A program made the position numbers and the translations under genes. The notes below the pieces were generated by a model that made no database searches, was not told where the DNA came from, and saw only the letters and a list, made by a program, of their open reading frames with translations. A stretch of 64,000 nt of DNA, from contig CM114271.1 of the NCBI GenBank assembly GCA_050084515.1, forward strand, positions 49,042,001 to 49,106,000, in the 5' to 3' direction. Below are positions 123 to 52,507 of this stretch, one piece after another; the first letter of the stretch is position 1; every line of letters starts with the position of its first letter. Source of the stretch: Blasia pusilla (taxonomy: Eukaryota).

Positions 123-1756
<1,634 letters not shown>

Positions 1757-6364: not shown

Positions 6365-6870
6365 AGATTCTAGTGTTGGATCCCTTTGGAGGGTTCTACT
6401 CTATGTTGGTTATTGTGATATAGGCAAGAGTGTATAGAAATACTTGTATGTGGAGCGGGATGAGGTTGTGAGGCCCATCTCACTCCAACATGTGGCATAG
6501 ATGCAACTTTATTTTCTTGACTTGTTACCCACGTCGACCATGCAAGGTTACAAAAGTTCCATACCAAAGGATATTTCCTTCTTGGGTGCATACGATCTAG
6601 AATAGATGGAAACCATTGATTTGGTCATTCATGTTGGCTATAGTAGGTTAGTCAAGTGTTGGATGAGTTTATGTTTTCCTATTGCCTATGCATATAAGTA
6701 GGTTAGTCTGGGTTTGGTTAGGATGATCAACACAATGGTTGGTAGAGCCCAATGCCAATGAGAGGGTAAGATGGGATTCCCCATAAGAGTGATGGTAGTA
6801 TCATTACTATTATAGAAGTCCTAACATCATATTTTGGGCCAAGCAATAGACCTAAACTGCTTGACATTTA
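6365..6870 (+). pseudogene. Degenerate C5 DNA methyltransferase domain (older element copy)
   Basis: Motif I ILVLDPFGG (~6367-6393), motif II YLYVERDE (~6441-6464), motif IV lead-in TIDLVI (~6612), motif IX-X region LVEPNANER..MGFP...ILGQAIDLNCL (~6740-6865). Frameshifts and stops present. Confidence 0.8.
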
Positions 6871-9014
6871 TTCTCAATCTAGAAGTAGTACGTTGAGCAA
6901 CAAAGTTGCAAGAGGTCATCTTTGTTGCATTTGTTAGCTCAGTGCCCATCCAAATAATACAAGAAGTGGATGGGGGCTAGATTAGAGATTAAGATATGAG
7001 AGGGGATCAAGAGAGACATCCATGCATGGACTTTATAGGAAGTGATACAAGTGCACCAAGATATGGCAACCACTACAATTGGCATGTTGATGATGTTGTG
7101 CAACAAGGAACATAGGAGATGAGATGTTTGAGTTGGCTATAGATGAGCAATTAAGTGTCATTAATACTTATGGGGTTACATTATAGCAACCAAAATCCAT
7201 GCTAGACAGTCTTGTAGTAGTCACGATGGAAACTTGGGAATCACATATTGGTCCTAAGTCAACAAGAGGAGATCGGTTCTTGAGGGATCATAGTAGTTGT
7301 TTTGGATTTAGTATGCATGATTTGAGTATACTGAAGGATCTAAGGATACGCATTGAGTTATCTAGCAACACCTCGATCTTTCAATGCTTCTATAAGTGCA
7401 AAAATAAGGAGAACAAGGGCCAAGAGTTGGTTGAGGCAAGACTAGTGAAGATCTTGCGTGGAGAATATGCACTTGCCACAATCATGCCCGCTAAGAAGGA
7501 TGCGAGCTCCCGACATTGGATTTATCTCCTGTGAAGAACTTCAGGATTGACCCCTGTGATGGGTGCTGATCCTTTGCACCTCCTTTCCTTGGTATGCCTC
7601 TCTTCCACACCTTAATGCCATCTCTACAACAGCCTCTTTGACCTCAGAGGCATCCAAGTGATCCCAACTAACCAAGTGTTGTCTCAAATTATGATCCAAA
7701 TTCAGTTTCTTTGGGCACATGTCTGTATGCAACTTTCTACAGACTCTACACCTGATCTTAAATAGGTATGACGTATTGGAATACTGAGGATCCGTGGGAG
7801 ACGGTGTCACAAAAAACACCTATGTGTCACCCCCAACATCCTCATTCAGTTGGGTGACAATATCCACTCCTCTAGAGATGGCCTCACCATGATCAAATTG
7901 AGGTATGTGAACGTCACTAGGCTCCATCAGTGATGTAGGAAATTTTCTTCTCTTACAAAAGCTATCCTTATGTTTTGAGTTAACTATATACTTTGTCCTA
8001 AAATTGCTAAAGCAATTTGCAATAGCTTTCACATTCTGAGAGTTCTATGCATTCCCATAGTTCACTCTACACTCCAAACACTCTAGATGTCCTCTGTTCC
8101 ATCATCCCATGTCCTCACCATCCAATTATGGTCCTTGTATCCATTCTTCTCAATCCACTTCCATAATCTCATGAACTCATCATTCCAGCATTTGGCAGCT
8201 TGCTCTACCATCAATACTCAAACGAGGCTTGCACAAGACCTTGGTTTGTGACATCAACCGAACTCACTGGATGTGCCTGGGTTTCAGTATGGTTCTCCAA
8301 CACATGAGCTGAACTCGCTATAGTCTCAGAGACAGTAGACATTGTGGCTGCAGAAGATTGGGAGGACACTCGCGTTGTCCTCCCACAAGGGCCAACACGT
8401 AACTGTGGAATGACACATACTATTCCATCAATAGAATTACCTTCTTTGCATTTTGGTGCATTCTACCAGTGAGTTTGAAATCCCAAAAATCAAAATCAAA
8501 TTCCACAATTCCATAACATTTCATATGCATGTCTGCTCGTGACTGCCCTTCTTTGTAACCTAGAACACAAATTGGCTCATCGTTTTGTCCTTCACCCCTC
8601 TTTTCAACCAATCTGATACTATCTCTAATAGAGGTCAACATTGGACACTACGGGAATACACAGAAAAACTTGTTATATAAACCACAACAGAGAATACAAC
8701 ACCATAAATCAGATCCAAACGAATTGTATTATCCAATGCCACCTTGCATTCAATCTCACTCAAAGTTGCATTCTTTGAAACAAGTTTCATAATTTTGAAC
8801 GCAACTCACAAACATTGATGTCATCTCCTTCATTTAAGACATTGCAAATGGATCCATAAAAGAACAAATTTCTTTTTGAATACTACAACCTAAATCCCAA
8901 AATCCAATGGACCAACTTGTTGTATGAACTGATGTTAAAGTCTCTATTGCATTTATCCAACAATTGGAGTATCCTGGAAGGTAGTCCTATTGAGGCTAGT
9001 CCCATGGCGAGATC

Positions 9015-10129: not shown

Positions 10130-11071
10130 AGTATCACTTCACTCCTTAGTGTCTTACTTTGAATTAACAACACAAAGAGCAAGAGCATATGTTGATCTTG
10201 CTAAGCGGGTCGCACCAAAAATTTTCAACACATTCAATAGACTTCATTTAATAGAGACAAAGATATTGAGTTGGAGATCAGAACCCACCTTTGGTTTGCT
10301 GATTGTAAACCACTTTGAAAGTTGAAACCCCCTATTGAGAGGATGAGCCAAGTCTACACATACATTAAGCATCACTAGCTGGGTTGGATACACTTGAACT
10401 CATCATTCCAATCAGTAGACTAAATTCATTGCCCAAAGAACATATGTTGATATACATTCAATAGCCTTGATTTATTGCCCATGGCTCGTGCACTAGTAAG
10501 TAATGTCTAATGGGGATCCCAAACAAGTAAAGTACAGAGCAAGATTAAACCTTGATGTTCATACAAAAAAAAATACAACACATAGAGCAAGATTAAACCT
10601 TGATGTTCATTGCCCAAAGCTATTGTGTTGATAAGTAATGTTCACTGGGAATCCCAATTAGGTAAAGTAGTGACAAGTCACTACATGAAGACGGTCTCTC
10701 TCCTGGTCTCTTAAAAGCAAGGAGGAAGCCATGAAAATATCAGGCCTCTATCTCCTGTCCTTGGTTGATAGGTATATCGTGAACAAGCAGAACTAAAAAA
10801 CTATTTTTTGGGAACCCCAACTTGGGAACTCGTCTTAAGTTCAAGTTTAGGATGAGAGAATTCCCTTAAACTATGAGAGCTAAAATCTAGAGCTTGTGTG
10901 ACGACAAGGATAACATCTCTACTCACTACTTGGTCTCTTGCATAAAATTCACAAAAAATACAGCAAGAGCATTAGTCGATATTGCTTAGTTGGTAACGCA
11001 TTCTACACATTCTGTAGCCTAGATTCATTGCCCAAAGCTACTGCACTGGTAAGTAATGTTTATTGGGGATC
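10130..11071 (+). mobile_element. Cluster of at least four short 3'-end fragments of the LINE family found at 34.1-38.8 kb
   Basis: Repeated matches to the LINE C-terminus (ARAYVDLAK.VAPK.FNT; cattgcccaaag...gtaagtaatgt...ggggatccc = SLPKA.ALVSNVYWGS) at ~10130-10250, ~10410-10535, ~10605-10670 and ~10780-11071. Confidence 0.8.
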
Positions 11072-14000
11072 GAGGAAGGATGTGCATGGAAAGTGGACGG
11101 ATATGCAGATGTTTGGAGATTAGATTTATCGGCCTGACAATCAATTGACAAAGTTTGATAGGTATGTTATCCCTACTTTTGAGGAGATCCTTGATGCTAT
11201 TAGGCCTGCAAATATCTTCACTTTTCAATCTAGTATCGAGATCAAAGATCTAAATATCTTTAGATCTTGAAGTTGGATACCATCAACTGTCTATTCAAAT
11301 GAAGGATAGGTGCTCATGAGACGGAATGTTTGTGCTAGTGGTGATCCTTACCATTTGGATTAAAGAATGCCCCAAAAAAGTTTTGTAAGGTCATGGATAG
11401 GATCTTGGGCTGAAGCTACATCAAGGCTAGTGCAAGTGCAAGTTCTTTTATTATCAAAATGACTGCTTGGGTCATACCATATACCCAAGTAGCCTTGATG
11501 TTCAAGAGAGGAAGGTAGATGCTATCTCACAAATTCCACGCCCTACAAATATGAATCACGTGCGTGTGTTCCTGGGATTGGCAAAGTTCTATGGATAAAA
11601 TTTCAAGGGATTTAGTGCCATTGCAAAATCCCTGACCTTTTTTACCAAGGATGGATTATACGGATCATGAGTGGTAGTGGGGGCATGAGCAAGAGAGAGA
11701 ATTTTAGTTGCTTAAGGACATATTGATGTTTGCGCCTATCTGAAGGAGACCTATGGAAGGGCATCCTTTCCAGTTGCACACAAATTAGAGTTTTTTTGTT
11801 CTAGGAGTTTTGTTCACCTAACATATCAATGAGGATTGTTTAGGATGGTTGGCTATGGAGAGCCATATCATGGTGGCTTCAAAAGTGAGGTCATTGATAA
11901 ATTAGAGTCCTTAGATCTACAGGGTAGTAGGATGCGATATATAGATGGTCGAGATATCTACATGGATGGGATGGTTTTGGAATACCTATACCTATATATA
12001 TATATATATTGGTACCATTGTGAGCATGGTGGGTGCTAGAAAGCAAGATCAAATCTTGCAATAAGTCATACTATTTAGGTAGGAGGAAATATATGATCTA
12101 ATTTACAAGTTTTAGAGGGTGGTAGAGTATGAGTGATGCCTCATCCTTTGCCATGAGCATGATTGATGTAGCATGCGTATGAGTAAGGACACTTTGCAGT
12201 GAAGCAGACATATTGCTTGCTCCATGTATAGTTTTGGTGGTGAGGCATATAGAAAAATATACAAAAGTTTGTTTCCATATGCATGGTGTTTGATCAAGTC
12301 CAAGGATTTTTCAATACTCTGACTCCACCCTTACATCCATTACTGATCATGGGTTTAGGCTAAAGATGGAGTTTGGATTTTATAGGGCCTTTACCTTTGA
12401 TATATCTCCAAGTCATTATGAATTAATTGGTGTTGTTCAAGCACTTATCAAAGTAGATAGAGATGGTTGTAATATAACCATTATTGTAGGATTAATCTTG
12501 CTCTCTAGCACGCACCATGCTCATAATAGTACCAATAATATTAATGCAATATTTGGGATATTTACGCACATCCTCGTAAGATAATCTTCTCTCATAGTAT
12601 GAAAAACTCGCTTTGCTAGTCCATTGACCTCAAGATGATCTTGCAAAGTGGTGTGATGGTCAATCAATACCTGATTACATAAGGTTGGAAACTATTGTTG
12701 AGATTTTGTACCCTATTTTGTCAACACCTCCGTTGGTGCACCATATTGACTCAATACTCAATCTAGGAATGCATATTGTAGGATTACTATACTATGGTTT
12801 TATGGTTTTTATAGCCTCATTGGGCAATACATTCAAGGGGGTCTTACAAAATCAAGTTATGGCAAACTTCTCACATGATTGTGATACAAAAGCAATCCCA
12901 TTGATTATAATGTTACAACTCTTTATATGTTGGGAAAAAAGTGGCTTATAGACACCAGTAGATGAAGAAGATAGAAGAACATACGACACCAATTACTTTT
13001 GTGCAAATAGTGTAAAGTTATCTAAGACTTCCCTCATAAATAAATGAAAATTATTTGGATAATTGTAATTTTTGCGTGAATGGATTTTGATACGGTCTAG
13101 CTAGTATTATACTATTGTGTCATTATTAATATGTACCAATCATAAAACAATAATTTAATATCTAATAACCTTGAATCTACAAACCCATCCCCTTGCATCC
13201 CTTCAAGTTGCAAGTGTGATGGTAATATAAATGTCCAAAAAATCTTAAAATATCACAAATTTGCTAGTGGTCATGTAAGTGTTGTCACATCTTAGTTAGC
13301 CGACAAGTAGAGTTCTACCGCATCGACCACATAGAGGGTAAGCGGGTTATCTGGGTGTAACTTTGTCTTGAGATATTAGATGAGGTTGCGGATTGGCCTA
13401 TTGTGTGAGAAACATCATCTCTCACGATTTCCCTTTTTGGGTCTTTATTGGCCATGTAAATCGTTGACCGAGTCAATGGTCACCTAGTAGCATGTGTTGG
13501 AAGGTTACTGTTTGAAGGCTATTTTTGGGGGAAGAGCCAAAAGGCTCTTTCCAAGGCTGAGAGAGAGAGAGAGAGAGAGAGAGATGTGGCCTTCCCCATC
13601 CATCTTTCTGATGTTGGGCCTTAGGAGTACCTCTCTTGCATGTGTGCGAGTGTAGGAACTAGAGCGCGATTGTCAAGATTCCCTCATAGTAGAGGGTGGA
13701 TATGGCTCGAAATGCCAATGAAGATTCAGGAATGGAGTCTTAGGTTGGGTGGGTTATTTTTACTTTGATTTTACATGAGAAAGATGTGAGGGGGCAAACG
13801 GGAATTTGTTGTATGTAGGTAGGAAAAAAAGTTTCCTTGATGGGGAGCCCTTGGAGATGCCGATTGGCATTTGTTTTTTTGTTTTTCCGTCTGAACGTCG
13901 TGCATAGAAGCGCTACTTGTTTCTCACTAATTTTAGCTTCTAGCGGTGTATGGGTAGAGCAGTATTAGAGTTACGGACATGAGCGCTTGAGTGTAGCATT

Positions 14001-28699: not shown

Positions 28700-29990
28700 G
28701 GGGAGAGATGGACAACATGAGCCATCGGCCATGTGTGGTTTCTTGGGTATGGTAGGCACCATAGATCTAGATAATTTCATCCAGGAGTTCGACACATGGT
28801 GCGACTTCCAAGAGATACGAGCCCTTACACGGTTCAACCCTCTCATGGCATGGAAGGGTTTATTCCAACATTTGGAGGATCCTCTGATGGATGACTACAT
28901 GGTGTTTTGGTCCTTACACTCAGTAAAGATCGATGCCTGTAGGATGTATTAGGCTCTACGATATGTATCCACTAGTGGCCATGAGGCATATGATGGGATA
29001 GTGAGGGGGGAGAGACCTACACCATAGCTAGAAGGAGATGATGGTAGTGAAGAGGGTGAGGAGGTAGTGACCACACGTGCTAGGGCATCATCCAATCTCA
29101 ATCCTATAGTGGAGTTCTTTTGACAGTTGGGGAGGAGATACCAAGGTGTGCGGACCAACAAGTGGAAGAGTCTACAAGAATTTCAATGGAGATTGGGTGA
29201 GAGTGTGAGAGAGGCATTCACGTGCATGCGCCAACTGATCATTGCTACATATGTAGTGACTGAGGCGTAGTTAGTGTAGTATTGGTACGGGATTCTAGAC
29301 CAAGAGCTATAGAGGAGAGTTCAAGATGCGATGTTGCTTCATACAGCAAAGCCTAGTGATATTGAAGGTGGTCTCCGAGTTATCTGAGCAGATAGAGCTC
29401 AACACGAGTGAGGGGCAAATTGTGACCATGGGATTTTCACGGGATTTGACACACCCACATGTAGGAGTAGCCCCATAAGTGCCCCCACATGCACCAGTAC
29501 CATGAGAGCAGGCGGATGGGCCTAGAGAGCAGGGCGGGTATTGTGAGTCGGTAAGGCAACGGCCCGCACCGAGATACGTTGCCCGCCAACGACGAGTGAT
29601 GGCTTGTTGGACATGTGGTAGCCCCCATAGGCAAAGAATATGGTAGAGGGCCTAGGTACCTTAGAGTGTCGAGAGTCATCTAGGATGACCCTACCACAGT
29701 TTTAATGTAAACATTGTCACCAATATGGTCACACTAGGGATGGGTAGTTTGATCTTCACTTGGCTTGTCGCCCATCTATTCCCTTCTGTGGGTCTATCTC
29801 TACCCCACCTCTTCATAGCTCGGTCATTCTCGTAGCACCCCGAGTCACCACCAAAACAGTCTCTACCTGAGTTGTACTGCACATAAGCCTCAACCTTGCA
29901 TAATCCTTCAACGAATCCTGATATGACGTGGAGGCTGGAGCCACACTAGCTACTCTTGGCTCCAACTGATTGATGCAAGTGAGGAGACTA
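28700..29990 (+). pseudogene. gag relic of the DNMT-gypsy family
   Basis: FLGMVGTIDLDNFIQEFDTWCD...FNPLMAWKGLFQHLEDPLMDDY aligns with FLGAVSTIELHDFIAEFRSWCD...FNPFTAWNGIFQHLEGAPMDDY (43605-44039). Confidence 0.85.
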
Positions 29991-33885: not shown

Positions 33886-33944
33886 GACCAAAAAACCAAG
33901 GGATTTGATCCGTCCAAAAACAAATAGAGAGATCTGTCCACGAA

Positions 33945-39170
<5,226 letters not shown>

Positions 39171-41198
39171 CCATGAATTCAAGCAAGCTGTGTGCAAGAG
39201 AAAGGACAGATGAAGAGGGGGCGTTACTTGGAAATTCGACTTACTCGGAGTCCCATGGGCATTGTCATGGTAGCCTCACTGGCCACCGCCACGAGGTTCA
39301 CTCTCTGATCCATGTATATCCAACACCCTCTTCCTCCTCTAGCACCGGGCCGGCCACACTCCATCATGAAACCGCCATTTTTTCCCTTCTCCCCCAACTC
39401 TACATGCCACAAAACAAAGATGACAATTTGGGAGCCGCACACATCGCCCTGCTGTCTACCTCAATCCAAACCCTCCTCTCAATTGTTGCGTCTTTCCCTT
39501 TTGAAACCAAATGCAGGACCAGAGAGAGAGAAAGTGGGTCTATGGTCGCTAGATTAACATACGCATTGACGAACACTCTCTCTTGCTCATAACCTCTTTG
39601 TGGAATAATCATCCTCCTCACCTCTCTCTCGCGCACATTGGATTCTTGTAGTCGGACCTCCCTCTCACCGGCATCACCTCCGTGCGTGACGAAATGCAAA
39701 GTTGGCTTCTACTTTCTAGTTGGGGTCACTCTCACTTCACTGAAAATTTGTAAGGGCCGTCCCATCCCCCTGCATGGGATTGGCAGTGCTTCCTCACTGC
39801 GTGCTTTGTTTGCAAAGATCCCCACTCCATCCTACCACCTATGATCCACCAGCCCTGGGCAATCTGCCGTTTCAGCATCCAACTCATGGATGAAAATGAT
39901 TCAAAATGGCATGAAAGAGATGTGCAATTCTAGATTCTAATGATCGAGGCTCCAAATCGAGACCGATGAGTAAACTTCTCCGGCCTTTGCCAATGGTTGT
40001 CGCCCGTTGTGATGGAGGGGAATCTGTCACGTCTCTTAGGATATATTAGTGAGATCTAGTAGAGCGCCTTTGTGAGTAGTGGAGGACAAGCTCATTTGGT
40101 CAAGGATGACCTATTGAAGCCTCAGGAAACTTGAGAGAGCAGGTTTCCCCTTCGTTTCGGCTCATTTGGAGCCATATTGAGAAACTTACTATTTTAGGTA
40201 AGTACCATTTTGAGTATGTTATCGACTTTCTTGTTTTAGTAAGTGGCCCTTGACCTCCTACATCAAGTCAAGATCCAAGGAGATGACTTGGGAGAATAGG
40301 TTACCATGGAGAGAGCTTGGGAGAGGGAAGGGGTATATCCAGGAGAGAGAGCTTGAGAGCTCATTCTCTCTTTGTTGAACCTCTTGGCATGAGGTGGCGG
40401 AGCTATGGTCTCTTGCCTTGTGAGTGTAACCCAAGCCTCTCATTAGGAGAGTGGGTTTGGTTTGGCATGAGAGAGAGTGCACACCTTTGAGAGCTATGGT
40501 GTGAGATGGTGTAGAGAGAAATTAGATCTTACTTTACAAAGAGAGAATGAGAGAACGAGAGAGTGAGAGAGCTTCATGGGGGAACTTGCTGGTCACTCGC
40601 TGTTTTTGCAGGTTGGGGACCGTGTTCCCCACTCAGCGGCTCATAGGAATACTCACCGGAGCAAGGGCTGCTTTGATTATTCTTTGCACTTGCCGATTTT
40701 TTGTGTGAAAGAATGGCGCGCGGAAGCGCTGCCCAATTTCTGATAGGGCTTGATTATGGGGGCGGGTTGCCCCATGCCGCTGCTCTCGGGAGCACCGTGT
40801 AGCTTGCTGATTATTTTTTACTGGAACGCCCGATTCTAAATATTATGAAGCTATGCACGCTGTGCAACAAACGGTGCGCAATTAAGAGTTGCGAGAAAAA
40901 AACAACATCTAACCCGATGCTAATCCTTCTAAAGAGATCTAACACTCGAATATCCTCCTCCGAGATACACCACTATGGCCAATCTTGAAAAATTGCCATT
41001 GCTAGGCGATTCTTAGGGTTAAATTGTTCGAACCCTAAATCAACCGCCACGCCGGCAGCGGCCGTCACCGTCATAATTATCGTCGATGGTCAACCGTCAC
41101 CATCAACGATCAACTATCACCGTCAATGATCCACCATCTGTTGTCCACCCTTAGGTTGCCATTGCCGCCGTTATGGAGTGGAGGGTCTTCCACGACGT

Positions 41199-41467
41199 TG
41201 TCGTGTCGAGAGCCTTTCTTCGAGTAAGGGCAGGCCTTCCTGCTTGCGGCAAACGCGGTCGATGCAAGATGAACTCTTTGAGAAGATCTCCTTTTTCAAT
41301 ATAAAATTATCATGTTCTCTCACGATAGGTATCACAAATGGAAGTGCCGAGGCGATCACTTCTTCGTAACATCGGACCCCAAAATTTCTAACTATAAAAT
41401 CCCTATAAACTATTTTACGCTTGTATACGAGGATGATAGCACAATTAGTATTAAACCCTACTTGAGC
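41199..41467 (-). mobile_element. LTR B copy B3, 3' portion (the rest lies at 44773-45768 because of an inversion)
   Basis: Matches 23633-23912 with a small deletion. Inserted after ACGT (41195-41198) in the family A terminal repeat. Confidence 0.88.
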
Positions 41468-44039
41468 GGCGCCCATCATCTGACTGCCATCCTGGTATGT
41501 AGGACGCTGACTCCTCCCAGTAATCTAGGGAAAACCCCATCGGGTTTAACACTCCTCCACCAACCAAGACGTCGTAGGACTCTGCATCAATCACTATCGC
41601 CTTGGCTCGCACCACGGACTCATCTGTAGGATGTCCCGGGCAAATCCTCGCCACAACCTCCTGTCGGGTGATATATTGTGTGGTACTCGCTCCACCCAAG
41701 AATGTCTGTATCTGGAATGGACAACGCTCCACATCGGCTCTCGTCAAGCCCAATCCTCAGAATGACGCTTTCCCCAACATCAGGGGTTGCGCTCCTGAAT
41801 CCAACAAGATGTGCTGCGGACTAAAAGCTCTACCTACGAGACTCACCAACTGGAAGACTGATCCTCGGTTATCCAGCAACACAACACCAGGAGAAGCCAT
41901 GGCACGCTCTATTGCGGGTCTAGCGGGCATCTCCGCCATCCTAGTAGCCGCAGCCTGCCATGAATCTTACCTGGACGGCCCATGCATCCGCTCCAAGGGC
42001 AGGTCCATCACCTCCTCTGCAATCACCTCTGAATGTGATGCAGGAACTCCAACTCCACACTCACATAGCGTAGCGGCCAGCCAAAAAGCCTCGGCAGGCG
42101 TACCCCCAAACGTCATAACATCGGAAGAAAAAAATAAAGGAGCGCGATACACAATGGTGGACGACCCCAACAACGTGCTCGACACATGCCCCTCCTGAGC
42201 ATCAACAATAGGAGTTGTTGCACTCGCTTTTCCCATCGCCCTCCGTGCATGCACACCAACAACATCACCAACTCTCCAAGAACTGTGATCAGGACCCATC
42301 GATGGAGTCCTCATCGCCTCGGACAACGTGAAAGATTGAGGAAGCCTAGTATGTTTCCTGGCTTCCCCTCGCTATGGATCCAGCTCTGCGGCTGCTCCAT
42401 ATGTCACAAGTGCGGCTGCCTCCATCTGGACAATCCCGCACATCCAACCAGGATCCTCCATATCTCTAGCTGCTCCATATGATGTTGATGCCACGGATCC
42501 GGCATCGGGTAATCTCAATGCCATAGCGGCAATTTGCTCCTGTAGTTGATGTATCTGAGCAGCCATCCTAGCCTCACGCCCGACATCTCCCTCGATGCGT
42601 CTAGGTGGTAGGACTCTACCTCCTCCGCGGGCAGCTCCAACACCCTGTCGGGCAACCCCAGCTCCTTGTCCCCCAACACGACCGCCTGGTGCACGATCTC
42701 TAGGCCCACTCGGATCGGCTTCTCGCTCTGGTGCCTTCTCTGGCCCTTGGTCCGAACATAACTCAGGATGTAAACTAAAACACTTGGCGCCTGTATGACC
42801 ATACCTCTCACAGTAGTCATATTGATAACCTCCTAGTGCAACACCATCTCCTCCTCCATGCTGAGGCACACTTCCATGACCCTGACGAGTGCAATCGCGC
42901 TGATGATGGGCTCCACCAGATGACCAACAAGTAATAGTAGGCGGCTACTGCTGAGCCGCATATGAAGGTGCAGATCTCTATGGCACGGCCTCCCGGTATC
43001 CTCCCAGAGCTCGTGGTACCACAGTCGACCTATCTCGGAGTCCACGTTGCTGCACAAGTGGTGCAGATAATCGCGACTGCTCTCGCCTAGAACCCATGGT
43101 GGCTACGCTCTCCTCCGCCTTGTTGCGCTCAATATTCTCGGCGGTCCTAAAATCATCTTTCAACGTAGGGGAGGTGTTCATAAGAAGCACCCCCTCCCGC
43201 ACCCGTGTCCGTAGGGTCTGATCCAACATCGCGTACCATGAATGGATAGCTTGAGCCTCTATCACCCCCTGAGTGACGTTGATCAATCGGCGTAAGCGAG
43301 TGTAAGCCTCACACAAACTCTCACGCGGGCGCCTCTGGAAGTTGTGGTTGCTCCGCAACTTCTCCGTCCGTACCCCTTGGTAGCTCGCCCTCAACTCACC
43401 AAAGAACTCAACCACAGGGTTGAACCTGAGACAAACCCGACTACGCGATGCAACTGCTCCCGTGCGAGTGACCCCTCCTAAAATGTCACAAGTGGAAGAG
43501 GAAGTAGCCTCTCCTGACTCCTCCTCATCTGGGAACGGCTCCGTCCATGACACATAATGTGGGTCATAGTAGAGCCTCCACACCTCTATCTTACGTGCAT
43601 ATCTCTAAGAGAACTCATGGTAATCGTCCATGGGCGCCCCCTCTAAATGCTGGAATATCCCGTTCCATGCTGTAAACGGATTGAACTCTCTAGAGTTCCT
43701 GGCCCGTTGGGAGTCGCACCAACTCCTAAACTCTGCTATGAAATCGTGCAACTCAATCGTACTTACTGCACCTAAAAACCTACGCGGTCCTCTACCCCGG
43801 TCGTCCATCTCGTACGCCCAAGTGGTAGGACCACTCACAATGTGTGGCGATGTGCTCACAAATTCCTCTACACCCTCCCCCTTGTCTGACAATGACACAA
43901 AAGGAGGTCGAGGTGGTCCCTCACGTGGAGACCCTTGGAACCTCGCGCCACTCCAAGTAAAACCTCTAGAGCTACTCTTGGGTTCACCACCTTGCCTCTC
44001 AAAGTCCCGAACGGACGCCCTGATGACCCTCGTGCCCAT
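41468..44039 (-). pseudogene. gag and aspartic protease of family A (inside the inverted segment)
   Basis: gag FQRRPRESLCEAYTRLRRL; zinc knuckle DYCERYGHTGAKC; protease ILLDSGAQPLMLGK...YDVLVGG. Confidence 0.88.
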
Positions 44040-44772
44040 CTCACTCGATCACTCTCGCCTCGCGAGTAATCCCTTAATCACTCATCCCAAACATACGGCA
44101 CCCAATCTACACTCTCCCTCTCCGAGACGTGTAATGTGCGGCAACAAGCGGTGTGGTGCGGCAAATCGACCAGACTATCATCTCAGCGACAGCCTACCCT
44201 CAACTCCAAACATCCCACACAGGTCTATGTCCCCTAAACCACATATATAAATGATGCTCTCAGCATCCACACACCCAATATCCCCAAATAAACTACCAAA
44301 ATCCCAGAAATCCCTCACATGTGCAGGATAAGGGACCAGAATGGGTAACCTTAATACATGTCGATGTCGCTCCTCAACAATTGTAAATCTCGACCCCCAC
44401 TCGGTCGTGGAGGCAACTCCTCCAATCAGCAAGTCATACTCCTTGATGGTGGGATGCGACACTCAACAACATACCCTCCTCAATCAACAATAAACCCACA
44501 CTCTGCTCCACAATGACGATGCGACTCCGCGATCGAGACGGTGCGGTGCGGCCACGAGCGGCAATCAACGACGCGTTGCGACTACGGGGATCACGGCACG
44601 GTACTCGATTGTCCTCGAGAGGATACCAATCACAACATAGCAGCATGAAATCAAAACTCAAACACCATAACAGAGGTCATCTGCCATCATTGATTGATGA
44701 CGAAACTTTGATGAAGGTGGCGGCCAAAACAAAGTACGTGGTGGCGACGCAAGTCAGAGAATCAACAAACTT

Positions 44773-45768
44773 TGTCGTATAATAAAATCAGCCACTGTGT
44801 AAACTTCTTCCTCATTAAGTGTTAGATAGATTTTTATTAGTATTAAGTAAATTAGCTTAGGAAAAGGAAGTTCCCGTGTTTAAACCTCTTTATGGCGTCT
44901 CTTTTATGTGGGCCCAATTTTAGAAAAGAATTCATAAATAAAAGATGACTTTATAAAAGTAAAGTAGTGAGGTTGGTGCTTTAATGAAAAGCAAAAGTAG
45001 GCTTGGTTGATGACTAGGTTAGTTTGGGTAATTTGGAAAATATCAATTGGATAAAAGAGGATATTTTGGAAGAGATAAGAGGAAATCTACTTGTGTCAAA
45101 ATGTGATTGGCTAAGCCTTGAGAGGAAACCATGTGGCACAAGATAAGTTTAGTTCTATTTCGTATTCTTCTGGATCTCTTGTGAGTATATAAAGAGGATG
45201 GACCTTCAAGGGTTCATCACCTTCTATTCCACATCTTGAGTCTTTTGTGTCACTCTTGAGTGTATGACTTTGGGATTGCTTGCTCTTCCAATGAGATTGG
45301 ATCATCCCTCTTGGGAGAATAACTTGACCATGGTCTATTCTTCGAGAGGTTTCTAGAGTGTGGTGTGTGTGTGTCGAGATGAGAGGTTTGTCACCTTAGA
45401 GGAGTTTAGTCATACTAAAATAGTGAATGTTTTGGCTTGTTACTTCCCCAATGAGAGTGGATTACCCCTCTTGGGAGAATAACTCCGGCAAAACCCATTC
45501 TTGAGGAGAATAGAGAATGTCTATCAAGCATGGATACGGGTGGAGCACGAGTTGTGCCCGAATTTCCTTTCCTCAATCCATACCATGTCAAGATACTCTT
45601 TGTAGATAGGCACTGGTTCACTCGCTATTTAGTTTATCACTTTGAGGAAGCGTTTATGAACCAGGTCATTCAATCTCTAACTCCGGTGATCCTTCCTATC
45701 ATCACATATGGAAGGACATGGGATTATACTTTGTATGTCCTTATATAGCGATCCATGAACGTCAATAA
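44773..45768 (+). mobile_element. LTR B copy B3, 5' portion
   Basis: TGTCGTATAATAAAATCAG start; collinear with 14476-15470. Confidence 0.9.
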
Positions 45769-45769
45769 G

Positions 45770-46600
45770 GGCAAGAGTGCGAGTACAACAGTACATGTAT
45801 GCGGAGAGTGATGATGTTGCGAGGCGTGTCTCACTATGACATGTGGCACTGTTATGCCTACGTTTTCCCGACTTATTTTGTGTGTTCGCTGTACAGGGGT
45901 ACCAGAGTTCCCTACCAAGGGATATTTTGTTGTTGGGGGCGTAGGACTTAGAGCGGGTAGGGACCATTGATTTGGTCATTGCCGATTAGCCATGGTAGGG
46001 CCAATCGAGTGTTGGACGAGGCAGCGGGTTGGTTGACACTCGATCCCGGTTGTTTTGGAAGATGTTGAGGGTCTTATGGCAGTTGTAGGAGCATCAATCT
46101 CTCATCAGGTGCGTGCCTCAATCGGCCCAGTAGTGTTCTTGGATGCGGCGAGTGTAGGTTCTAGAGCCCATCGTCCGCGTCTATGGTGGACCAACTTGGT
46201 GTCCCATACGGTGTTACAGAGGGCGTATTCAAGAGTGGAGCGCCCCTCCCATATATTAGTGGATTCCATTCTGGATCTAGGTCGTCGCTCAGAGGCAGTG
46301 AGGCACGATGATTGATCACCGTTGATTGTGGTCAACAAGGTAGGCAGGCCGCGGGCAGCCTTTCCCATATTTGTGAGTTTTCCCACTTCCTATGGATACA
46401 AGGAGGCCGGTTGTTGCTTGGTTTGGGATGACCAGGTTCAAAGGTTGGTGGAGCCAAACGCCGACGAGAGAGAGCAAGCGATGGGATTTCCCACAGGAGT
46501 GACGGCAGTACCGTCAGTATCAGAGGCATCACGACGTCATGTCTTGGGTCAGGCGATGAACCTGAATTGCTTCACATGGATCTTCAGCTTGGGAGTGGCT
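45770..46600 (+). pseudogene. DNMT3-like C5 cytosine methyltransferase domain within family A pol
   Basis: Motif II YMYAESDDVAR; motif IV IDLVIAD*PW*GQSSVGRGSGLVDTRSRLFW (45966-46038, decayed GWPCQG); motif VIII LDAASVGSRAHRPRLWWTNL; motifs IX-X EREQAMGFPTGVT...SEASRRHVLGQAM. Motif I was lost at the inversion break and motif VI (ENV) is apparently deleted. Confidence 0.88.
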
Positions 46601-46949
46601 GAGCAACGTCGGATGATATCACGACAGATCAGAGCGGTTACGTTGGTGAGCCCCATGCCTACCGAGATGGTGGAGGCAATGGCTCGGGGCGAGATCCGAG
46701 GAGATCGACACACCATGGGAGATCGGGAGAGACACCCTTGGACTTCTTGGGATGTTTTGCAAGTATGCTAGGAGATGATAGCCACAACATTGAGCGTGGT
46801 TCCAGGCACTGCATGTGGAGGAGATCAGAGTTTGCAGTTGGCTGCAAGAGAGCGGTCGAGTGTTGTTGTTCGAGACGGGGTTGCACCATAGCAACCACCG
46901 ATACCCGCGGCGGAGAGTCTTACCGTAGTCACGATGGAGACTTGGGAGC

Positions 46950-49900
46950 CAGATATAGGCCCTATGTTGACAAGAGGAGAGCGGCACCGAATACATCAAT
47001 TCCTCAGGAGTTATAAGAGCCGCTTTGCGTTTAGCATGGAGGATTTGGGTACGCTGAAGGGACCAAGGATCCGCATTGAGTTATCAAGTGATATGCCAAT
47101 CTTTTGACGACCCTAGAGGTACAGTGATATGGAGAGGGCTCTGATTCAGAGTAGGAGCCAGGACTTGGTTGGAGCAGGACTAGTGGAGATGCCGCATGGG
47201 GAGTATGCATCTACTACTGTCATGCCCGCCAAGAAGGATGTGCATGGGAGTTGGACGGATAGGCGGATGTGTGGGGATTACTGACCTATCAATCGGCAGA
47301 CAAAGCCCGATAGGTATGCCATGCCCACCCTGAGGAGATCTTTGATACGATTGGTCACGCAAAGGTCTTCAATTCATTGGATTTCCGCACCGGATACCAT
47401 CAGTTGCCTATCAGATTTGAGGACAGGGAGGAGACGGCATTTAGGGGCATCGATCCTCACGGGAAGGATTGTTTGTACTAGTGGCGGTTCTTACCATTTG
47501 GGTTAAAGAATGCCCCGGCTGAGTTTCAGAGGGTCATGGATAGGATCTTGGCCAGTCTGGATTTTGTTAGGTATTATATTGATGACATCGTAGTCTTTAG
47601 CGCCACGGTTGAGGAGCATGAGCGACATCTAGAGGAGGTGTTTTGACGATTGCAATTACATGGAGTGAAGCTACATCCTGGCAAGTGCAAGTTCTTCTAC
47701 GACCAGATTGAGTATTTGGGTCATACAATATACCCAGGGGGCCTTGGTGTTCAGCAGACAAAGGTAGAGGCTATCTCACGCATTCCACGCCCTACAAATG
47801 TGAGCCGTGTTCGTGCATTCATGGGATTGGCAAACTTCTATCGGCGGTACGTCAAGGGATTCAGTTTGATTGCAAAGCCGCTAACCTTGCTGACCAAGGT
47901 GGATCACGAGTGGCACTTGGGGGATGAGCAGGAGCGAGCATTTCAGTTGCTCACGGAAAGGTTGACGTCTACGCCCATCTTGAGGAGACTGATCACGGGG
48001 CGTCCTTTCCAGTTGCATACAGATTGGAGCATGTTGGGGCTTGGAGCGGTGCTCACCCAACATGATGATGAGGGTAGAGAGTTCGTGGTGGCTTACGCTA
48101 GCAGCTCGAACAATGCTCCATAGGCAAAGTACATCTTGTATGAGGATGAGTGGTTGGCTGCAGTGTGGGCTGTCGCGCATTTCAGGTGTTACTTATTCGG
48201 AAACCCCTTTACCATCATCACTGATTATCAACCATTGAAGTGGTCGATGGAGTCCGACAAGCTTATAGGGAAGCTTGTGAGATGGGCTTTGTTGTTGCAG
48301 GAGTATGATTTTCAGGTGGTACATAGACCTGGGACGCTCAACGAGGATGCAGATGGGTTGAGTCGTAACCCATGCTCAAGTCAGCGAGATGCGACTAGAG
48401 CTCGATGGCATGGAGAGAGTGATGAGGAGTCATTGCCACGATGGCACGCGTCAGCCTATTTAGGCATGTTGGCTATGGAGAGCCATGGTGTGGAGACTTC
48501 TATGGCGAGGTCTAGTGGAGAGTCCTTGGATCCCGAGGCCAGTGAGGAGACGACAGGTGGCCGAGATATTCATGATGATGGATTAGTCTTGGAGTACCTT
48601 CGTACTGGCAGCGTAGCGAGCACCGTGGGTGCTAGAGAGCGGGATCGGATCCTACAGCGGGCCAGACGATTCCGTTGGGAGGGGACATATGTTTTGAGGG
48701 TTTGGGAGGATGGTAGAGTACGCGTTGTGTCATATCCTTTGTAGAGAGCATGACTAGTGCAGCATGCCCACGAGGAGTTGGGTCACTTTGGGATGAAGCG
48801 GATGTATAGCTTGCTCTAGATTCAGTATTGGTGGCGAGGCATGCAGACTGACGTTCAACAGTTTGTTGCCATATGCATGGTGTGTGATCGGGTCCGAGCA
48901 TCGTTCAATGCTCTGACTCCAGAGTTGCATCCATTACCGATCATGGGCTTAGGGTATAGATGGAGTTTGGATTTTGTAGGACCTTTGCCTTTGACAGAGT
49001 GTCATAGTTGTTATGTGTTGGTGATGGTGATGGTCGAGCACTTCTCAAAGTGGATCGAGTTGGTTGCATTTGTCGTGCGCATACACATCGCTACACAACA
49101 TACATCGCTATCATCAAACACGCACAATCCTATGCTAGCTCATGGCATCCATACACAAAGGCGAGAAGTACCAAAATATCTCCAATCGCCTCCCAAACTG
49201 CGATGACGATGGCAGCGCAAGTCAGAGAATCAACGGTGGTCGTGGAAGACCCTCCACTTCGTAATGGCGGCAATGGCAACCAAAGGGTGGACAACCGTTG
49301 AATGGGGCTCTGAGCAGAGTTGGGCGACGGCAACGGCCGATGGTGGACAGTGGACGGTTGACGGTTGACCATTGATGTTGACGAAGGACCATTGATGGTG
49401 ACGGTGATGGTTGACCATCGATGGTGATGGTTGACCATTGACAAGTGACGGTCACTATGACGACGACGGCCGCCGCCTGGGTGGCGTTTGGTTTAGGATT
49501 TGAACAATTTAACCTTAAAAATTGCCTAGCAATGGCAGTTTTGCAAGATTGATCATAACTTTTTATTTGCAACTCTAAATTGCGCATCCGGTTGTTGCAC
49601 AACGTGCACAGATTCACAATCTACGATAATGTTAAAAAATATTTGGAATTGGACATTCGAGTAAAAACTCACGGGGACTGTCGTAAAGCCTAATGTCTCT
49701 TTCTCCTACACAAAATTTGGCAGCGCGTCCGCGCTGGTTTTCTCCCAACGAAAATGTAAAACCTATAAAAATACAAATCAGCAAGCTACATGGTGCTCCC
49801 AAGAGCACCGGCATGGGGCAACCTGCCCCCATAATCAATCCCTATCAGAAATTGGGCAGCGCTTCCGCGCGCCACTCTTCCACACAAAAAATTGGCTAAT

Positions 49901-51499
49901 ACAAAGAACAATCAAAGCATCCCTTGCTCCGGTGAGCAATCCCATGAGCCACCGAACGGGGAACACGATCCCCAACCTGCAAAAACAGCGAGTGACGAGC
50001 GAGCTCCCCCATGAAGCTCTCTCACTCTCTCATTCTCTCTTTGTAAAATAAGATCCAATCTCTCTCTACACCATCTCACACCATAGCTCTCAAAGGTGTG
50101 CACTCTCTCTCATGTCAAACCAAACCCACTCTCCTAATGAGAGGCTTGGGTTACACTCACAAGGCAAGGGACCATGGCTCCGCCGCCTCATGCCAAGAGA
50201 TTCAACAAAGAGAGAATGAGCTCTCAAGCTCTCTGTCCTTGAGGTATACCCCTTCCCTCTCCCAAGCTCTCTCCATGGTAACCTATGCTCCCAAGTCACC
50301 TCCTTGGCTCTTGACCTGATGTAGGAGGTCAAAGGCCACTTATCAAAAAAAGAAAGTCGATCACATACTCAAAATGGTACTTACCTAAAATAGTAAGTTT
50401 CTCAATATGGCTCCAAATGAGCCGAAACGAAGGGAAAACCTGCTCTCTCAGGTTTCCCCTCAAGAGGTCATTCTTGACCTCTAGGGCATGTCCTCCAATG
50501 CTCGTGAAGACGCTATGCTAGATCCCACCAATCTATCCTAACAATCGTGACACATTGCGTGACAAAGCGAGTGAGGGAGTAGCGTATGCCTTCCTAGATT
50601 GATTGCTGAGTCATTACGGCGCACCGGCTGAGGTGTTGACAGACCAGGGTACCAAGTTTCGTGGTGAGTTCCAGGCCTTGTGTGATCAGGCGCTGATCGA
50701 CCACCGCACGACTTCGCGAGATTATCCCGAGGCGGATGGATTAGCGGAGAGAGTTGTGCAGATGGTGAAGAGGGATTTACGCAAGTATGGCTTGTAGAGA
50801 GGTCACCTAGGAGATTGGGACCTCCTGTTGCCGTGGTTGGCGATGGGATACACATTCAGCAGGCATGCATCCTTAGCGTCCTTTTCACCGTACTTGCTAC
50901 TTTATGGCCGAGAGCCAGATTTACCTACGGTCATTCGTCGAGATGTTGGTGAGGTGCTGAACCTTGATGACCCAGATGTATGGATGCGAGCATGTTCTTA
51001 GAGGGCTGAGTTGTTTCGGAGAGTGATATCCATGGCGTTCGAGAACTTGGCGATTGCGCAACATTGGGTTACGTTGAGGTTTGCGACTATTCGGGATAGT
51101 GGTTATCGACCAACTATCTGAAGGTTTCATCCGGGAGATTATGTCTACTTGCAGCAGACGGCACTGACAACATTGGATGTGACTACAGGGCGCACTATCC
51201 TAAGAGTGTGTGACATTTTGCCATCCGGTGTTCTCTTACTCGAGGGACGCGATGGTATGGTATGGAAGGACCATGTCCGTAATTGTCCGCCATGTCACCT
51301 TCCTCATATTGATGGTATAGTTGATCCGAGCTTAGCAATAGTTTCTGCAGGCTTGCAGTGTATGTTGTGTGGTTCCGCCCGTGATGCAGCCACTATGCTA
51401 GTCTGTGATGGGTGTTCGAGAGGATGGCATATGGCATGTTTGACGCCACCTCTCATTAAGGTTCCTCACGGACGATGGATGTGTTCCAGATGTACATAG
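46950..51499 (+). pseudogene. RT, RNase H, integrase and C-terminal PHD finger of family A
   Basis: LPFGLKNAP, YIDD (47575-47586), FQLHTDWSMLGLGAVL, H..LGHFG..CMVC, WSLDF, LTDQGTKF..ADGLAER; PHD CMLC..MLVCDGCSRGWHMACLTPPL..VPHGRWMCSRC* at 51359-51499. Confidence 0.95.
49071..50552 (-). mobile_element. Solo LTR-like copy of family A inserted antisense into its own family's integrase
   Basis: TG...CA ends and 4-bp TSD CATT (49067-49070, 50553-50556). Removing it restores ELVALRDKASEGVAYAFL. Confidence 0.92.
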
Positions 51500-51879
51500 A
51501 GTAGGTAGTTCTACATTCCAACTTGTGTCTGTGATATGGATGACAAGAAGGCAACTAACGATGGGGCCACATGAATACCCAGCCTTCTTGCTCTTAGCGT
51601 CCAAGAGATGTATGTCATGGTAGGTAGGGATAGATGGCTATGTGGAGTTAGAGGGATCTAACCACCAGCTAGGGGGACGATTGGAGTGTTGCACAACAAC
51701 ACAAGTACACATGCATCCAGAAGTTGAAGATGTCGTCGGACTCAGGTCGAGTTAGGAAATTTTGGTACTTCTTGTCTCCTTGTTTGGATGCCATGAGTTA
51801 GCATGGGATCGTGCGTGTTTGTGTGTGTGTTCGGTGACAGTGATATATGTTGTGTAGCGATGTGTATGCGCACGATAAC

Positions 51880-52507
51880 TGTCACGTCTCTTAGGATAGA
51901 TCGGTGAGATCTAGTAGAGCGCCTTCGTGAGTAGCGGAGGACAGGCTTAGTACGTCAAGCATGACCTGTTGAGGCCTCGGAAAACTTGAGCTTCGTTTCG
52001 GCTCATTTGGAGCCATATTGAGAAACTTACTATTTTAGGTAAGTACCATTTTGAGTATGTGATCAACTTTCTATTTTTGGTAAGTGGCCCTTGACTTCCT
52101 ACATCAGGTCAAGAGCCAAGGAGATGACTTGGGAGCATAGGTTACCATGGAGAGAGCTTGGGAGAGGGGAGGGGTATGCCTCAAGGAGAGAGAGCTTGAG
52201 AGCTCATTCTCTCTTTGTTGAACCTCTTGGCATGAGGCGGCGGAGCTATGGTCCCTTGCCTTGTAAGTGTAACCCAAGCCTCTCATTAGGAGAGTGGGTT
52301 TGGTTTGACATGAGAGAGAGTGCACACCTTTGAGAGCTATGGTGGGAGATGGTGTAGAGAGATTGGATCTTACTTTTAGATTGGAGATATTTTGGTACTT
52401 CTTGTCTCGTTATTTGGATGCCATGAGTTAGCATGGGATCATGCGTGTTTGTGTGTGTGTTCGATGAGAGTGATGTATGTTATGTAACGATGTATATGTG
52501 CACGACA
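51880..52507 (+). repeat. 3' terminal repeat of family A (internally shorter than the solo copy)
   Basis: 51880-52375 matches 40025-40535; 52378-52507 matches the end of the solo copy and 51757-51877. Confidence 0.85.

Follow-up and report, generated by a model that had tools for sequence, protein, structure and literature searches.

Retrotransposons that carry the very class of enzyme with which their hosts silence them have been studied in dinoflagellates and in one charophyte alga, and the benefit to the element is open (PMC5890265). The described element most similar to the one treated here, KnitGypsy-Dnmt3 of Klebsormidium nitens, encodes a non-rearranged DNMT3 domain in a polyprotein with Gypsy-type domains and has no introns; in K. 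nitens the intact copies keep the catalytic residues, the DNMT is under purifying selection, and the repeats are described as DIRS-like (PMC5890265, legend of Fig. 4 for the repeats). In the sections of de Mendoza et al. (2018) that deal with them, Gypsy-DNMT3 elements are reported from K. nitens only, in few copies (PMC5890265), and a 2026 preprint sums the distribution up as ‘streptophytes (Gypsy-DNMT3)’ (10.64898/2026.05.21.726589). Here we describe a window of 64,000 nucleotides from Blasia pusilla (contig CM114271.1, the whole stretch of DNA that was analysed). Very probably, positions 40,025-52,507 of the window are a single dead and rearranged copy of a Ty3/gypsy-type family that encodes a DNMT3-type C5 cytosine methyltransferase, with the remnant of that enzyme at 45,770-46,600.

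The family is a land-plant member of the already known Gypsy-DNMT3 kind. As in KnitGypsy-Dnmt3, a DNMT3-type domain lies within a polyprotein open reading frame (ORF) of an element with Gypsy domains, introns are absent, and non-synonymous change in the DNMT is far below synonymous change. Unlike KnitGypsy-Dnmt3, the element belongs to a bryophyte clade and is present in thousands of copy-equivalents rather than few. The position of the DNMT at the end of the first ORF (ORF1) and the PHD-finger integrase go unmentioned in the passages on KnitGypsy-Dnmt3, and may appear in the figure of that paper. To our knowledge, a DNMT domain is not part of the standard classifications of plant long terminal repeat (LTR) elements. 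The initial annotation of the locus knew of no characterised land-plant case, and the literature agrees: we found no DNMT-bearing gypsy element described from a land plant, with the proviso that supplementary trees or tables may list some, phrases that name such elements turned up only in PMC5890265, the 2026 preprint and PMC6453930, and the Marchantia gene identifiers of the models discussed below were not found in any paper, though uncharacterised Marchantia gene models with the same Gag-protease-DNMT architecture are already public.

The methyltransferase remnant occupies 45,765-46,771 on the plus strand. Motifs II, IV, V, VIII, IX and X of the C5 cytosine methyltransferases follow each other in linear order, spread over two reading frames:

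45,765..46,097, plus strand: N-terminal half of the methyltransferase remnant, with motifs II, IV and V; motif I missing; five stops
46,094..46,615, plus strand: C-terminal half of the methyltransferase remnant, with motifs VIII, IX and X; one TGA at 46,313-46,315

In the frame of the N-terminal half, YMYAESDD (45,792-45,815) resembles motif II, motif IV reads IDLVIAD*PW*GQ (45,966-46,004), and RSRLFWKMLRVL stands at 46,041-46,076. The catalytic Pro-Cys position has become Pro-Trp (45,990-45,995), with a stop codon on each side. In the frame of 46,037, motif VIII is LDAASVGSRAHRPRLWWTNL (46,139-46,198), motif IX is EPNADEREQAMGFPTGVT (46,451-46,504) and motif X is RRHVLGQAMNLNCFTWI (46,532-46,582). 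The ENV stretch (motif VI) is deleted at about 46,095 together with a change of frame, corresponding to about 23 residues, including ILENVP, in intact relatives. A candidate for it, VVLEDVEGL, read in the frame of 46,037, was rejected as a chance look-alike; its bases are shared with the genuine RSRLF reading. Five stops fall in the N-terminal half and two in the C-terminal half and tail (TAG 46,769-46,771 being a lesion), seven in total. The initial annotation, which had read motifs II, IV, VIII, IX and X in order at 45,770-46,600, as well as the Pro-Trp, several stops and the lost ENV motif, was accurate in all of this. With motif I lost, the cysteine replaced by tryptophan, ENV deleted, seven stops and an inverted gag-protease block, the copy is dead and unable to make the enzyme.

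An intact relative makes the original plan legible. The Marchantia polymorpha gene model Mp_4g09160 (1,278 aa, here P0195) consists of Gag with CCHC knuckles, a protease (PR) and a methyltransferase that keeps FGG, PCQ, ENV, AHRxR, ERERAMGF and GQA. In tblastn, its residues 9-751 match 43,793..41,463 on the minus strand (43% identity, E 3.5e-158), residues 904-1009 match 45,783-46,100 (57.5% identity, E 2.4e-27), and residues 1017-1243 match 46,037-46,756 (53.8% identity, E 3.0e-68); residues 752-903, covering motif I and the linker between PR and DNMT, are unmatched. The N-terminal half of the remnant is also matched by residues 1306-1417 of P0007 (E 1.9e-15) and the C-terminal half by P0001 from Calypogeia (E 1.2e-78). 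When the read-through of 46,037-46,768, with X at stops, was compared by phmmer with 1.84 billion representative proteins, 729 proteins matched at E<=1e-3, 378 at E<=1e-10 and 22 at E<=1e-30, the best at 4.7e-73 over about 220 residues. Named relatives come from the liverworts Calypogeia fissa, M. polymorpha and M. paleacea, from the mosses Sphagnum tenellum and S. fallax and, more distantly, from the green algae Cymbomonas and Scenedesmus; looking up 10 further long matches by cluster gave nothing but unnamed metagenome proteins. Of the 214 relatives collected, 92 have the domain in full length with its motifs conserved; the relatives show FGG as motif I, AGWPCQGH as motif IV in the bryophytes and ILENVP as motif VI. 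The PF00145 profile exceeds its curated cut-off of 22 bits in 7 of 12 relatives (P0007, P0008, P0195, P0196, P0193, P0194 and P0201); among the other five, P0031 stays below the cut-off at 20.1 bits and four have no match. The read-through of L001, a moss-type copy of the family on a metagenome contig, scores 32.8 bits, above the cut-off. A protein atlas label, ‘C5 methylase, Streptophyta’, was tied with two phage clusters and is uninformative.

The domain of the intact relatives is predicted to be DNMT3-like both by profile and by fold. With the single window sequence, the best phmmer match in the PDB reached E 0.17 only and serves as no more than a lead, with 13 of the 14 matches listed being DNMT3A or DNMT3B, in two collinear stretches. 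A profile built from 27 relatives gave DNMT3A at 3.5e-28, DNMT3C at 5.9e-27 and DNMT3B at 1.6e-26; the first 29 of the 57 matches listed are DNMT3A, B or C (E 3.5e-28 to 5.8e-22), followed by DRM (2.4e-15 to 2e-12), M.HhaI (3.6e-10) and DNMT2, and DNMT1 is missing from these profile matches at E<=0.01. The AlphaFold model of relative P0192 has a mean pLDDT of 81, and above 90 across the domain, and its Foldseek matches, among those listed (ranks 1-46), are all DNMT3A, B or C (E 1.4e-17), with TM values by target of 0.77-0.83 for catalytic-domain chains and 0.41-0.54 for longer multi-domain chains. The host enzymes DNMT3A, 3B and 3C (PDB 2qrv, 6f57, 6u8p, 8tci) are thus the best match by profile and fold and share the linear motif order I-X, at about 20% identity, with PCQ in motif IV here against PCN in DNMT3A, and the domain here is set between the protease and the ORF-ending stop of a retrotransposon. 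Pfam detects no PWWP or ADD reader domain in the 12 polyproteins scanned. The plant DRMs (PDB 4onj, 7l4c), which are DNMT3-related, form the second-best profile group, but there the profile aligns by its positions 81-211 only, to the C-terminal part of the DRM chains, and the motif order here is linear; DRMs have a rearranged DNMT domain, unlike the DNMT3s of the K. nitens elements (PMC5890265).

The initial annotation placed this domain inside pol, directly upstream of reverse transcriptase (RT), in a gypsy-type element. Homology, profile and fold bear out the element type, the DNMT3 likeness and the place upstream of RT. The assignment to pol needs correction: judged from the gene models and the window, the DNMT is the last domain of ORF1 (Gag-PR-DNMT) in the bryophyte clade, with RT, RNase H, integrase (IN) and PHD finger behind a conserved in-frame stop. 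In the window the stop is TAG (46,889-46,891), and the frame continues beyond it with QPPIP...ETWEP and RT; in L001 it is TAA (11,477-11,479), with QPMAL...ETWEP behind it. Seven Marchantia protein models, P0193 from Calypogeia and metagenome relatives end at this stop. The Gag-PR-DNMT architecture recurs in 22 proteins of at least 900 aa, and the 20 full-length ones nearest the bryophyte clade end 76-171 residues past the domain. The S. fallax gene model excises the stop as an intron, and P0055 and its kin, on a more distant branch, have a single open frame. The conserved in-frame stop suggests stop read-through, with the DNMT in the Gag-PR frame. The full plan of an intact family member is accordingly terminal repeat, leader, Gag (CCHC), protease, DNMT, in-frame stop, RT, RNase H, integrase, PHD finger and terminal repeats.

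In the wider family the DNMT has two positions. In 33 of 93 proteins of at least 900 aa it lies on the side of protease and RT, and in 58 it separates RNase H from integrase; two show no other domain. A FastTree phylogeny of 117 domains (115 proteins with a near-complete match, the C-terminal half from the window and a Prorocentrum outgroup, partial domains excluded) separates the two arrangements, with all 35 PR-side rows on one side (support 86) and all 59 RNase H-integrase rows on the other (support 83). The window and all named bryophyte rows form a clade of 17 rows with support 100, in which the window adjoins Calypogeia (support 88; 71% identity over 169 columns). The sister elements with the DNMT between RNase H and integrase (P0031, P0047, P0078, P0220 and others; L003 at 1,400-7,483) have a PHD-finger integrase, and the named members of this set are chlorophyte algae. 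Scenedesmus ‘pol’ KAF8056149, Cymbomonas KAK3250090 and many metagenome contigs have a DNMT of the same family (E down to 1e-37), but in the order RT-RNase H-DNMT-integrase-PHD and not between protease and RT. L003 in this algal group likewise has an in-frame stop between PR and RT, after which a frame of 2,027 aa is open.

Other known elements are more distant. SymbioDIRS-Dnmt3 and SymbioLINE-DNMT of dinoflagellates and the EpiLTRs of Cymbomonas and Euglena are also retrotransposons with a C5 methyltransferase (PMC5890265; 10.64898/2026.05.21.726589); as described there, they differ in being DIRS or LINE (long interspersed nuclear element) elements, or in combining a DNMT4-like domain with an adenine methyltransferase and a chromodomain. 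Dinoflagellates contributed a single match, a weak one from Prorocentrum (E 4.8e-14). Chromoviruses, too, have a chromatin reader at the integrase C-terminus, but there it is a chromodomain, whereas here a PHD finger (PF00628) is accompanied by a DNA methyltransferase.

What the enzyme does for the element can be proposed by following ideas discussed for the algal and dinoflagellate elements (PMC5890265). In intact copies the DNMT would form the C-terminus of the Gag-PR-DNMT product and reach amounts like those of Gag, RT-IN being made by read-through of the ORF1 stop. The DNMT might then be freed by the protease or be retained in the particle, and might methylate newly made element cDNA or the insertion site; the new copy could thereby be taken for host DNA that is already marked, or could adjust its own chromatin state. 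By reading a histone tail, the PHD finger of the integrase may target integration. We put forward methylation of element cDNA or of the insertion site by intact copies tentatively, as a possibility that does not reach even chances.

The enzyme may instead have been kept without acting as a de novo DNA methyltransferase on the element’s own cDNA: its substrate could be RNA, it could work in trans on host chromatin, it could be a component of the particle that has a structural role or binds DNA or S-adenosylmethionine, or it could benefit the host by slowing transposition. RNA methylation, protection from editing, insertion-site chromatin and self-restraint are all listed as open options in the published discussion, and one element DNMT failed to methylate DNA in yeast (PMC5890265). 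A place in ORF1 together with Gag would suit a particle component, and in the algal type-B branch the commonest form of motif IV is AGWECQDL, with EC in place of PC (19 of the 92 full-length domains), so that catalytic activity should not be taken for granted across the wider family. The bryophyte clade, however, keeps FGG, PCQ, ENV and AHRxR, and its best profile and fold matches are the DNA-methylating DNMT3A, B and C and not DNMT2. We regard this alternative as less likely than not, and as deserving serious attention.

Taken at its widest, the proposal would be that one ancient green-lineage clade of gypsy-type elements with PHD-finger integrase and split direct repeats carries a DNMT3 (as the final domain of ORF1 in streptophytes, and flanked by RNase H and integrase in chlorophytes), persists in transcribed form in land plants, has multiplied to thousands of copies in one large bryophyte genome or more, and makes the enzyme in Gag-like amounts to write 5-methylcytosine on its own new DNA or on nearby chromatin. 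As a whole this is speculative, and we think it rather improbable; if true, transposons would be the source of some ‘DNMT3’ gene counts and of part of the de novo methylation in bryophytes. Elements of the same kind occur in land plants, M. polymorpha among them, so that the question can be taken to a species for which methylome maps, transformation and mutants of all host methyltransferases are available. Marchantia holds near-identical multi-copy gene models with all catalytic motifs, and ORFs of this kind are annotated as hypothetical protein or DNA (cytosine-5-)-methyltransferase, which can inflate host DNMT counts. The locus by itself is an ordinary dead transposon copy.

The Marchantia models could also be read as host genes domesticated from a retrotransposon, with the window holding a pseudogene of one of them. 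They do have gene identifiers, and one UniRef name is DNA (cytosine-5-)-methyltransferase. However, the models contain gag and protease and run on into RT (P0198), the cluster of P0195 has 18 member sequences at 90% identity, and in the window the domain lies between terminal repeats, in an element with a nested solo repeat and thousands of copy-equivalents. Domestication is therefore very unlikely. The retrotransposon family, in which 40,025-52,507 is copy 2, is represented in the window by further pieces:

5,900..7,534, plus strand: first part of copy 1, with PR at 5,900-6,200, motif I region at 6,298-6,420, DNMT at 6,438-6,989 and RT start at 7,187-7,534
11,049..12,781, plus strand: continuation of copy 1, with RT-RNase H at 11,049-11,785, integrase at 12,187-12,474 and an inverted integrase piece at 12,590-12,781
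28,707..29,974, plus strand: third gag fragment of the family, matching P0195 residues 14-351 (E 5.6e-56), with an inverted piece at 29,759-29,974

Copy 1 (5,900-12,781) is older and AT-richer, and was located by tblastn with P0195, P0193, P0198 and P0205. It keeps LDPFGG, motif I, near 6,370, and its DNMT remnant is without the middle third (P0195 residues ~970-1108). Between 6,543-6,629 and 45,894-45,980 the nucleotide match is 76%, so the copies are about 24% diverged, and from RT to integrase copy 1 matches 47,449-48,994 at 73-80%. The DNMT regions of both copies share the order PR-DNMT-RT. The third gag fragment lies downstream of a copy of repeat X and the leader (see below) at 23,628-25,388.

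One genomic run and three RNA runs of the same species were aligned to the window at >=85% identity. The two DNMT bins have a genomic depth of 1,317 and 1,952; for gag-PR, for RT-RNase H and for the stretch comprising the C-terminal part of the integrase and the PHD finger it is 1,800-2,500, against 0-0.6 for the adjacent spliced gene at 53,884-56,000. The DNMT depth exceeds that of this single-copy gene more than 1,000-fold, and the genome contains thousands of copy-equivalents, a figure with a wide error since the single-copy depth comes from a handful of reads. Among 159,434 aligned genomic reads, 67,156 are 90-95% identical to the window and 83,315 are below 90%. In all three runs the RNA is strand-specific and corresponds to the sense strand of each block, that of the inverted gag-PR as well as that of DNMT-RT-IN: over gag-PR, first mates on the plus strand stand at 19-64 against 0.3-7.8, and in the DNMT bins first mates on the minus strand, which are sense, stand at 31-81 against 0.4-9.6. 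That the first mate is antisense to the RNA follows from the adjacent plus-strand gene with its GT..AG introns. The family is transcribed together with its DNMT part. Within 40,000-52,800, variant places with A or T in the window and G or C in the reads of the family number 309 (A>G) and 288 (T>C), nearly double the 159 (G>A) and 170 (C>T) in the reverse direction; this excess fits deamination of methylated cytosines, that is, C-to-T decay, in a silenced copy.

Comparison with L001 reveals constraint. Between window and L001, the proportion of changed non-synonymous sites (pN) is 0.23 and 0.28 in two parts of the DNMT, with the proportion of changed synonymous sites (pS) saturated at 0.75 and 0.72; the values are pN 0.15 and pS 0.76 for RT, 0.21 and 0.59 for integrase-PHD, and 0.37 and 0.76 for gag-PR. 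Non-synonymous change in the DNMT is thus held well below synonymous change, similar to RT and integrase-PHD. Given two diverged copies, a read depth more than 1,000-fold that of the adjacent gene, and pN well below pS, the DNMT is a fixed part of the element family, not of this locus. A lack of the domain in other family members, which the initial annotation had named as a ground for refutation, is contradicted also by the Marchantia, Calypogeia and Sphagnum gene models. A scan of metagenome stretches confirmed 118 of 593, of which 80 were kept; L001-L003 alone are copies of the element family, and the remaining 77, with short matches of 19-46%, were set aside as they look like unrelated methyltransferases.

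A one-off host DNMT3 fragment, lying beside or captured by a single retrotransposon copy, would account for a domain that abuts the breakpoint at 45,767/45,768 and to which Pfam is blind. It is refuted by the second copy with its PR-DNMT-RT order, by the read depth, by the absence of introns, and by the same architecture in Marchantia, Calypogeia, Sphagnum and many metagenome contigs, and we hold it to be extremely improbable. Chance likeness of short motifs in decayed retrotransposon sequence, to which the missing Pfam match, the single-sequence PDB E of 0.17 and the look-alike VVLEDVEGL might point, has practically no probability left and is refuted by the phmmer matches over ~220 residues and by the collinear matches to intact domains in two frames.

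Several observations weigh against the interpretation as a DNMT-bearing gypsy family or limit its reach. At E<=1, Pfam finds no family in any of the three frames of 45,815-46,770, so the PF00145 search proposed in the initial annotation succeeds with relatives and L001 and fails on the window copy; this blank is attributable to the profile matching relatives only at its positions ~38-157 (motifs IV-VI), the part destroyed here. Pfam also finds nothing in copy 1 at 6,298-6,989. None of the copies within the 64-kb window is intact, nor was an intact copy seen from this organism; FGG, PCQ and ENV, whose joint preservation the initial annotation had proposed to look for, are all kept by P0195 from Marchantia. 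With a threshold of 85% identity for reads, the depth and RNA figures apply to the family and not to the copy at 40,025-52,507. Saturation of synonymous sites means that dN/dS is bounded only, and the near-identical pair L001/L002 gives a dN/dS of 0.70, which is neutral decay of dead copies and uninformative about function. Enzymatic activity, substrate and processing in the bryophyte-type clade are putative, as is the enzyme’s role in the element, and the EC form of motif IV in the algal branch counts here as well. Likeness to the K. nitens elements is by common features; no Klebsormidium-named protein is among the matches, most of which are unnamed metagenome proteins. Finally, the inversion of 41,466-45,767 in copy 2 could be an assembly error, the single-copy depth being too low for a check.

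Besides the two halves of the methyltransferase remnant, copy 2 is composed of the following parts:

40,025..41,199, plus strand: 5’ terminal repeat A1, starting TGTCACG
41,200..41,465, minus strand: repeat X, piece 2, between A1 and leader in this subfamily; inverted match to 15,476-15,707
41,463..43,808, minus strand: gag, with CCHC knuckles, and protease, both opposite in orientation to the rest of the element; six in-frame stops; homology to P0195 and P0007
43,809..44,767, minus strand: leader between terminal repeat or repeat X and gag, placed by its position relative to gag
44,768..45,767, plus strand: repeat X, piece 1; its end abuts the DNMT remnant and is the right edge of the inverted block 41,466-45,767
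46,616..46,891, plus strand: ORF1 tail, with the lesion TAG at 46,769-46,771 and the conserved stop TAG at 46,889-46,891; RT follows in frame
46,892..48,438, plus strand: RT and RNase H; frame change at 47,328/47,329; six stops
48,481..49,066, plus strand: N-terminal part of the integrase (H2C2 zinc domain and start of the core); Integrase_H2C2 at 3.4e-15; P0031 residues 1100-1318
49,071..50,552, minus strand: nested solo terminal-repeat unit (A+B) of 1,482 bp, which splits the integrase
50,561..51,358, plus strand: C-terminal part of the integrase core and linker; P0031 residues 1309-1621, E 3.4e-72
51,359-51,493 (to 51,499 with stop), plus strand: PHD finger at the integrase C-terminal end; PF00628 at 7.7e-11 and 1.5e-11
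51,756..51,877, plus strand: B1, which repeats the final ~120 nt of the unit and ends 2 nt before the start of the 3’ unit
51,880..52,507, plus strand: 3’ terminal repeat, consisting of A2, an internal deletion after 52,376, and B2 (52,379-52,507) ending CACGACA

The domains follow the gypsy-type order PR-RT-RNase H-integrase, and RT to integrase are collinear on the plus strand. RT-RNase H is recognised by Pfam (RVT_1 2.5e-21, RT_RNaseH_2 2.7e-15, RT_RNaseH 2.2e-16) and also matches P0031 residues 18-492 (E 7.7e-96). In the C-terminal part of the integrase the rve match is weak, at 9.4e-4 and under the curated cut-off, and identity to P0205 of S. fallax is 79% over 78 residues. Pfam finds no family on the gag-PR read-through of 41,463-43,808. 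Stops number six in gag-PR, three at the RT start, three in RT-RNase H, three in the N-terminal part of the integrase and five in its C-terminal part with the PHD finger (end included). The block 41,466-45,767 is inverted with respect to the rest of the element. At its left edge, 1,095 genomic reads reaching 41,468 continue into sequence absent from the window, as expected if other copies run from the protease into the PR-DNMT linker. The leader has a genomic depth of ~0.4 of that of the coding parts and contains a 25-nt segment (44,766-44,742) in common with the terminal-repeat unit.

The terminal repeats appear to be split, probably in the arrangement A1...B1-A2-B2 rather than as plain LTRs, despite a DDE integrase and a 4-bp duplication. 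A1 can be aligned to 51,880-52,376 (90%) and, in reverse complement, to 49,988-50,552 (89%). The solo unit has the ends TGTCACG...CACGACA (TG...CA) and a 4-bp target duplication, CATT; a joint from 49,066 to 50,553 that skips it is supported by 1,151 genomic reads and by 55-66 reads per RNA run. B, the last ~120-130 nt of the unit, is found at three places, namely the end of the solo unit, 52,379-52,507 and 51,756-51,877, and was not found in the 5’ regions of copy 2, copy 3 or L001. B1 is 78% identical to the end of the solo unit and 90% to 52,386-52,508, and it is this sequence that lies just upstream of the 3’ unit, with no obvious purine run. L001, a moss-type copy with only ~70% DNA identity, has the same B-A arrangement nonetheless: the string ...GCACGACA-GC-TGTCATG marks the start of its 3’ repeat, the same B-then-A junction two bases apart (within 14,847-15,191), and it has a 94% direct repeat (6,138-6,444 and 14,885-15,191) with no B upstream of gag. 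The repeats of L003 amount to a single weak 34-nt pair. The order A1...B1-A2-B2 is the layout defined for split direct repeats (PMC4157794), and it fits the remark on DIRS-like repeats in K. nitens (PMC5890265). The overall flanks of copy 2 are AATC and AAAT/AATC, offset by one base, an ambiguous target duplication; genomic depth falls from ~640 to ~3 after the bin 52,282-52,815.

Repeat X, of ~1.27 kb, occurs in the window in copies 91-97% alike at 14,502-15,757 (plus), 23,628-25,146 (minus) and 41,200-41,465 with 44,768-45,767; it lies between terminal repeat and leader in two copies and is absent from others. Piece 1 matches 14,502-15,468 (direct) and 23,918-25,146 (inverted) at 92-94%. The joint of 41,465/41,467 with 45,767 on opposite strands, covered by 222+280 genomic reads and 29-60 reads per RNA run, indicates that X is contiguous in other copies, and 205 genomic reads that join 41,199 to 44,767 on opposite strands indicate that other copies run from A directly into the leader. 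Two other delimitations were discarded: the ~1.2-kb repeat at 44,539-45,767 is not an inverted terminal repeat, as ruled out by the read joints and the direct units at 40,025 and 51,880, and 41,465 is not a terminal-repeat end, since the solo unit diverges from the left unit after ~41,199. RNA molecules start within X at 44,868 and 45,028. An 8-base gap at 44,969 is present in nearly all RNA reads over X (134 of 140, 238 of 243 and 164 of 170), so that one particular X copy elsewhere seems to be highly expressed.

The remainder of the window contains genes and other elements. The spliced, expressed host gene at 53,884-56,000 (plus strand) begins 1.4 kb downstream of the element and has GT..AG introns at 54,298-54,922, 55,031-55,177, 55,287-55,457 and 55,529-55,754, with 262-520 reads per joint per RNA run; its first exon has a Ser/Ala-rich, transit-peptide-like start. 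A different gypsy-type element, whose RT and integrase are 25-35% identical to those of the DNMT family, lies at 19,015-21,152 and 22,868-23,245 (both minus), with a gag-like ORF with CCHC-type zinc knuckles nearby. By eye, a LINE-like element with long open stretches resembling reverse transcriptase and endonuclease occupies 34,310-38,205 (minus), between (GA)n/(CT)n arrays at 33,881-34,191 and 38,736-38,900. Also by eye, an open stretch at 1,052-1,756 (plus) reads as the C-terminal part of alpha-tubulin, and 38,789-39,145 (plus) as a Glu-Arg repeat followed by a stretch like an exon of a dynamin-family GTPase.

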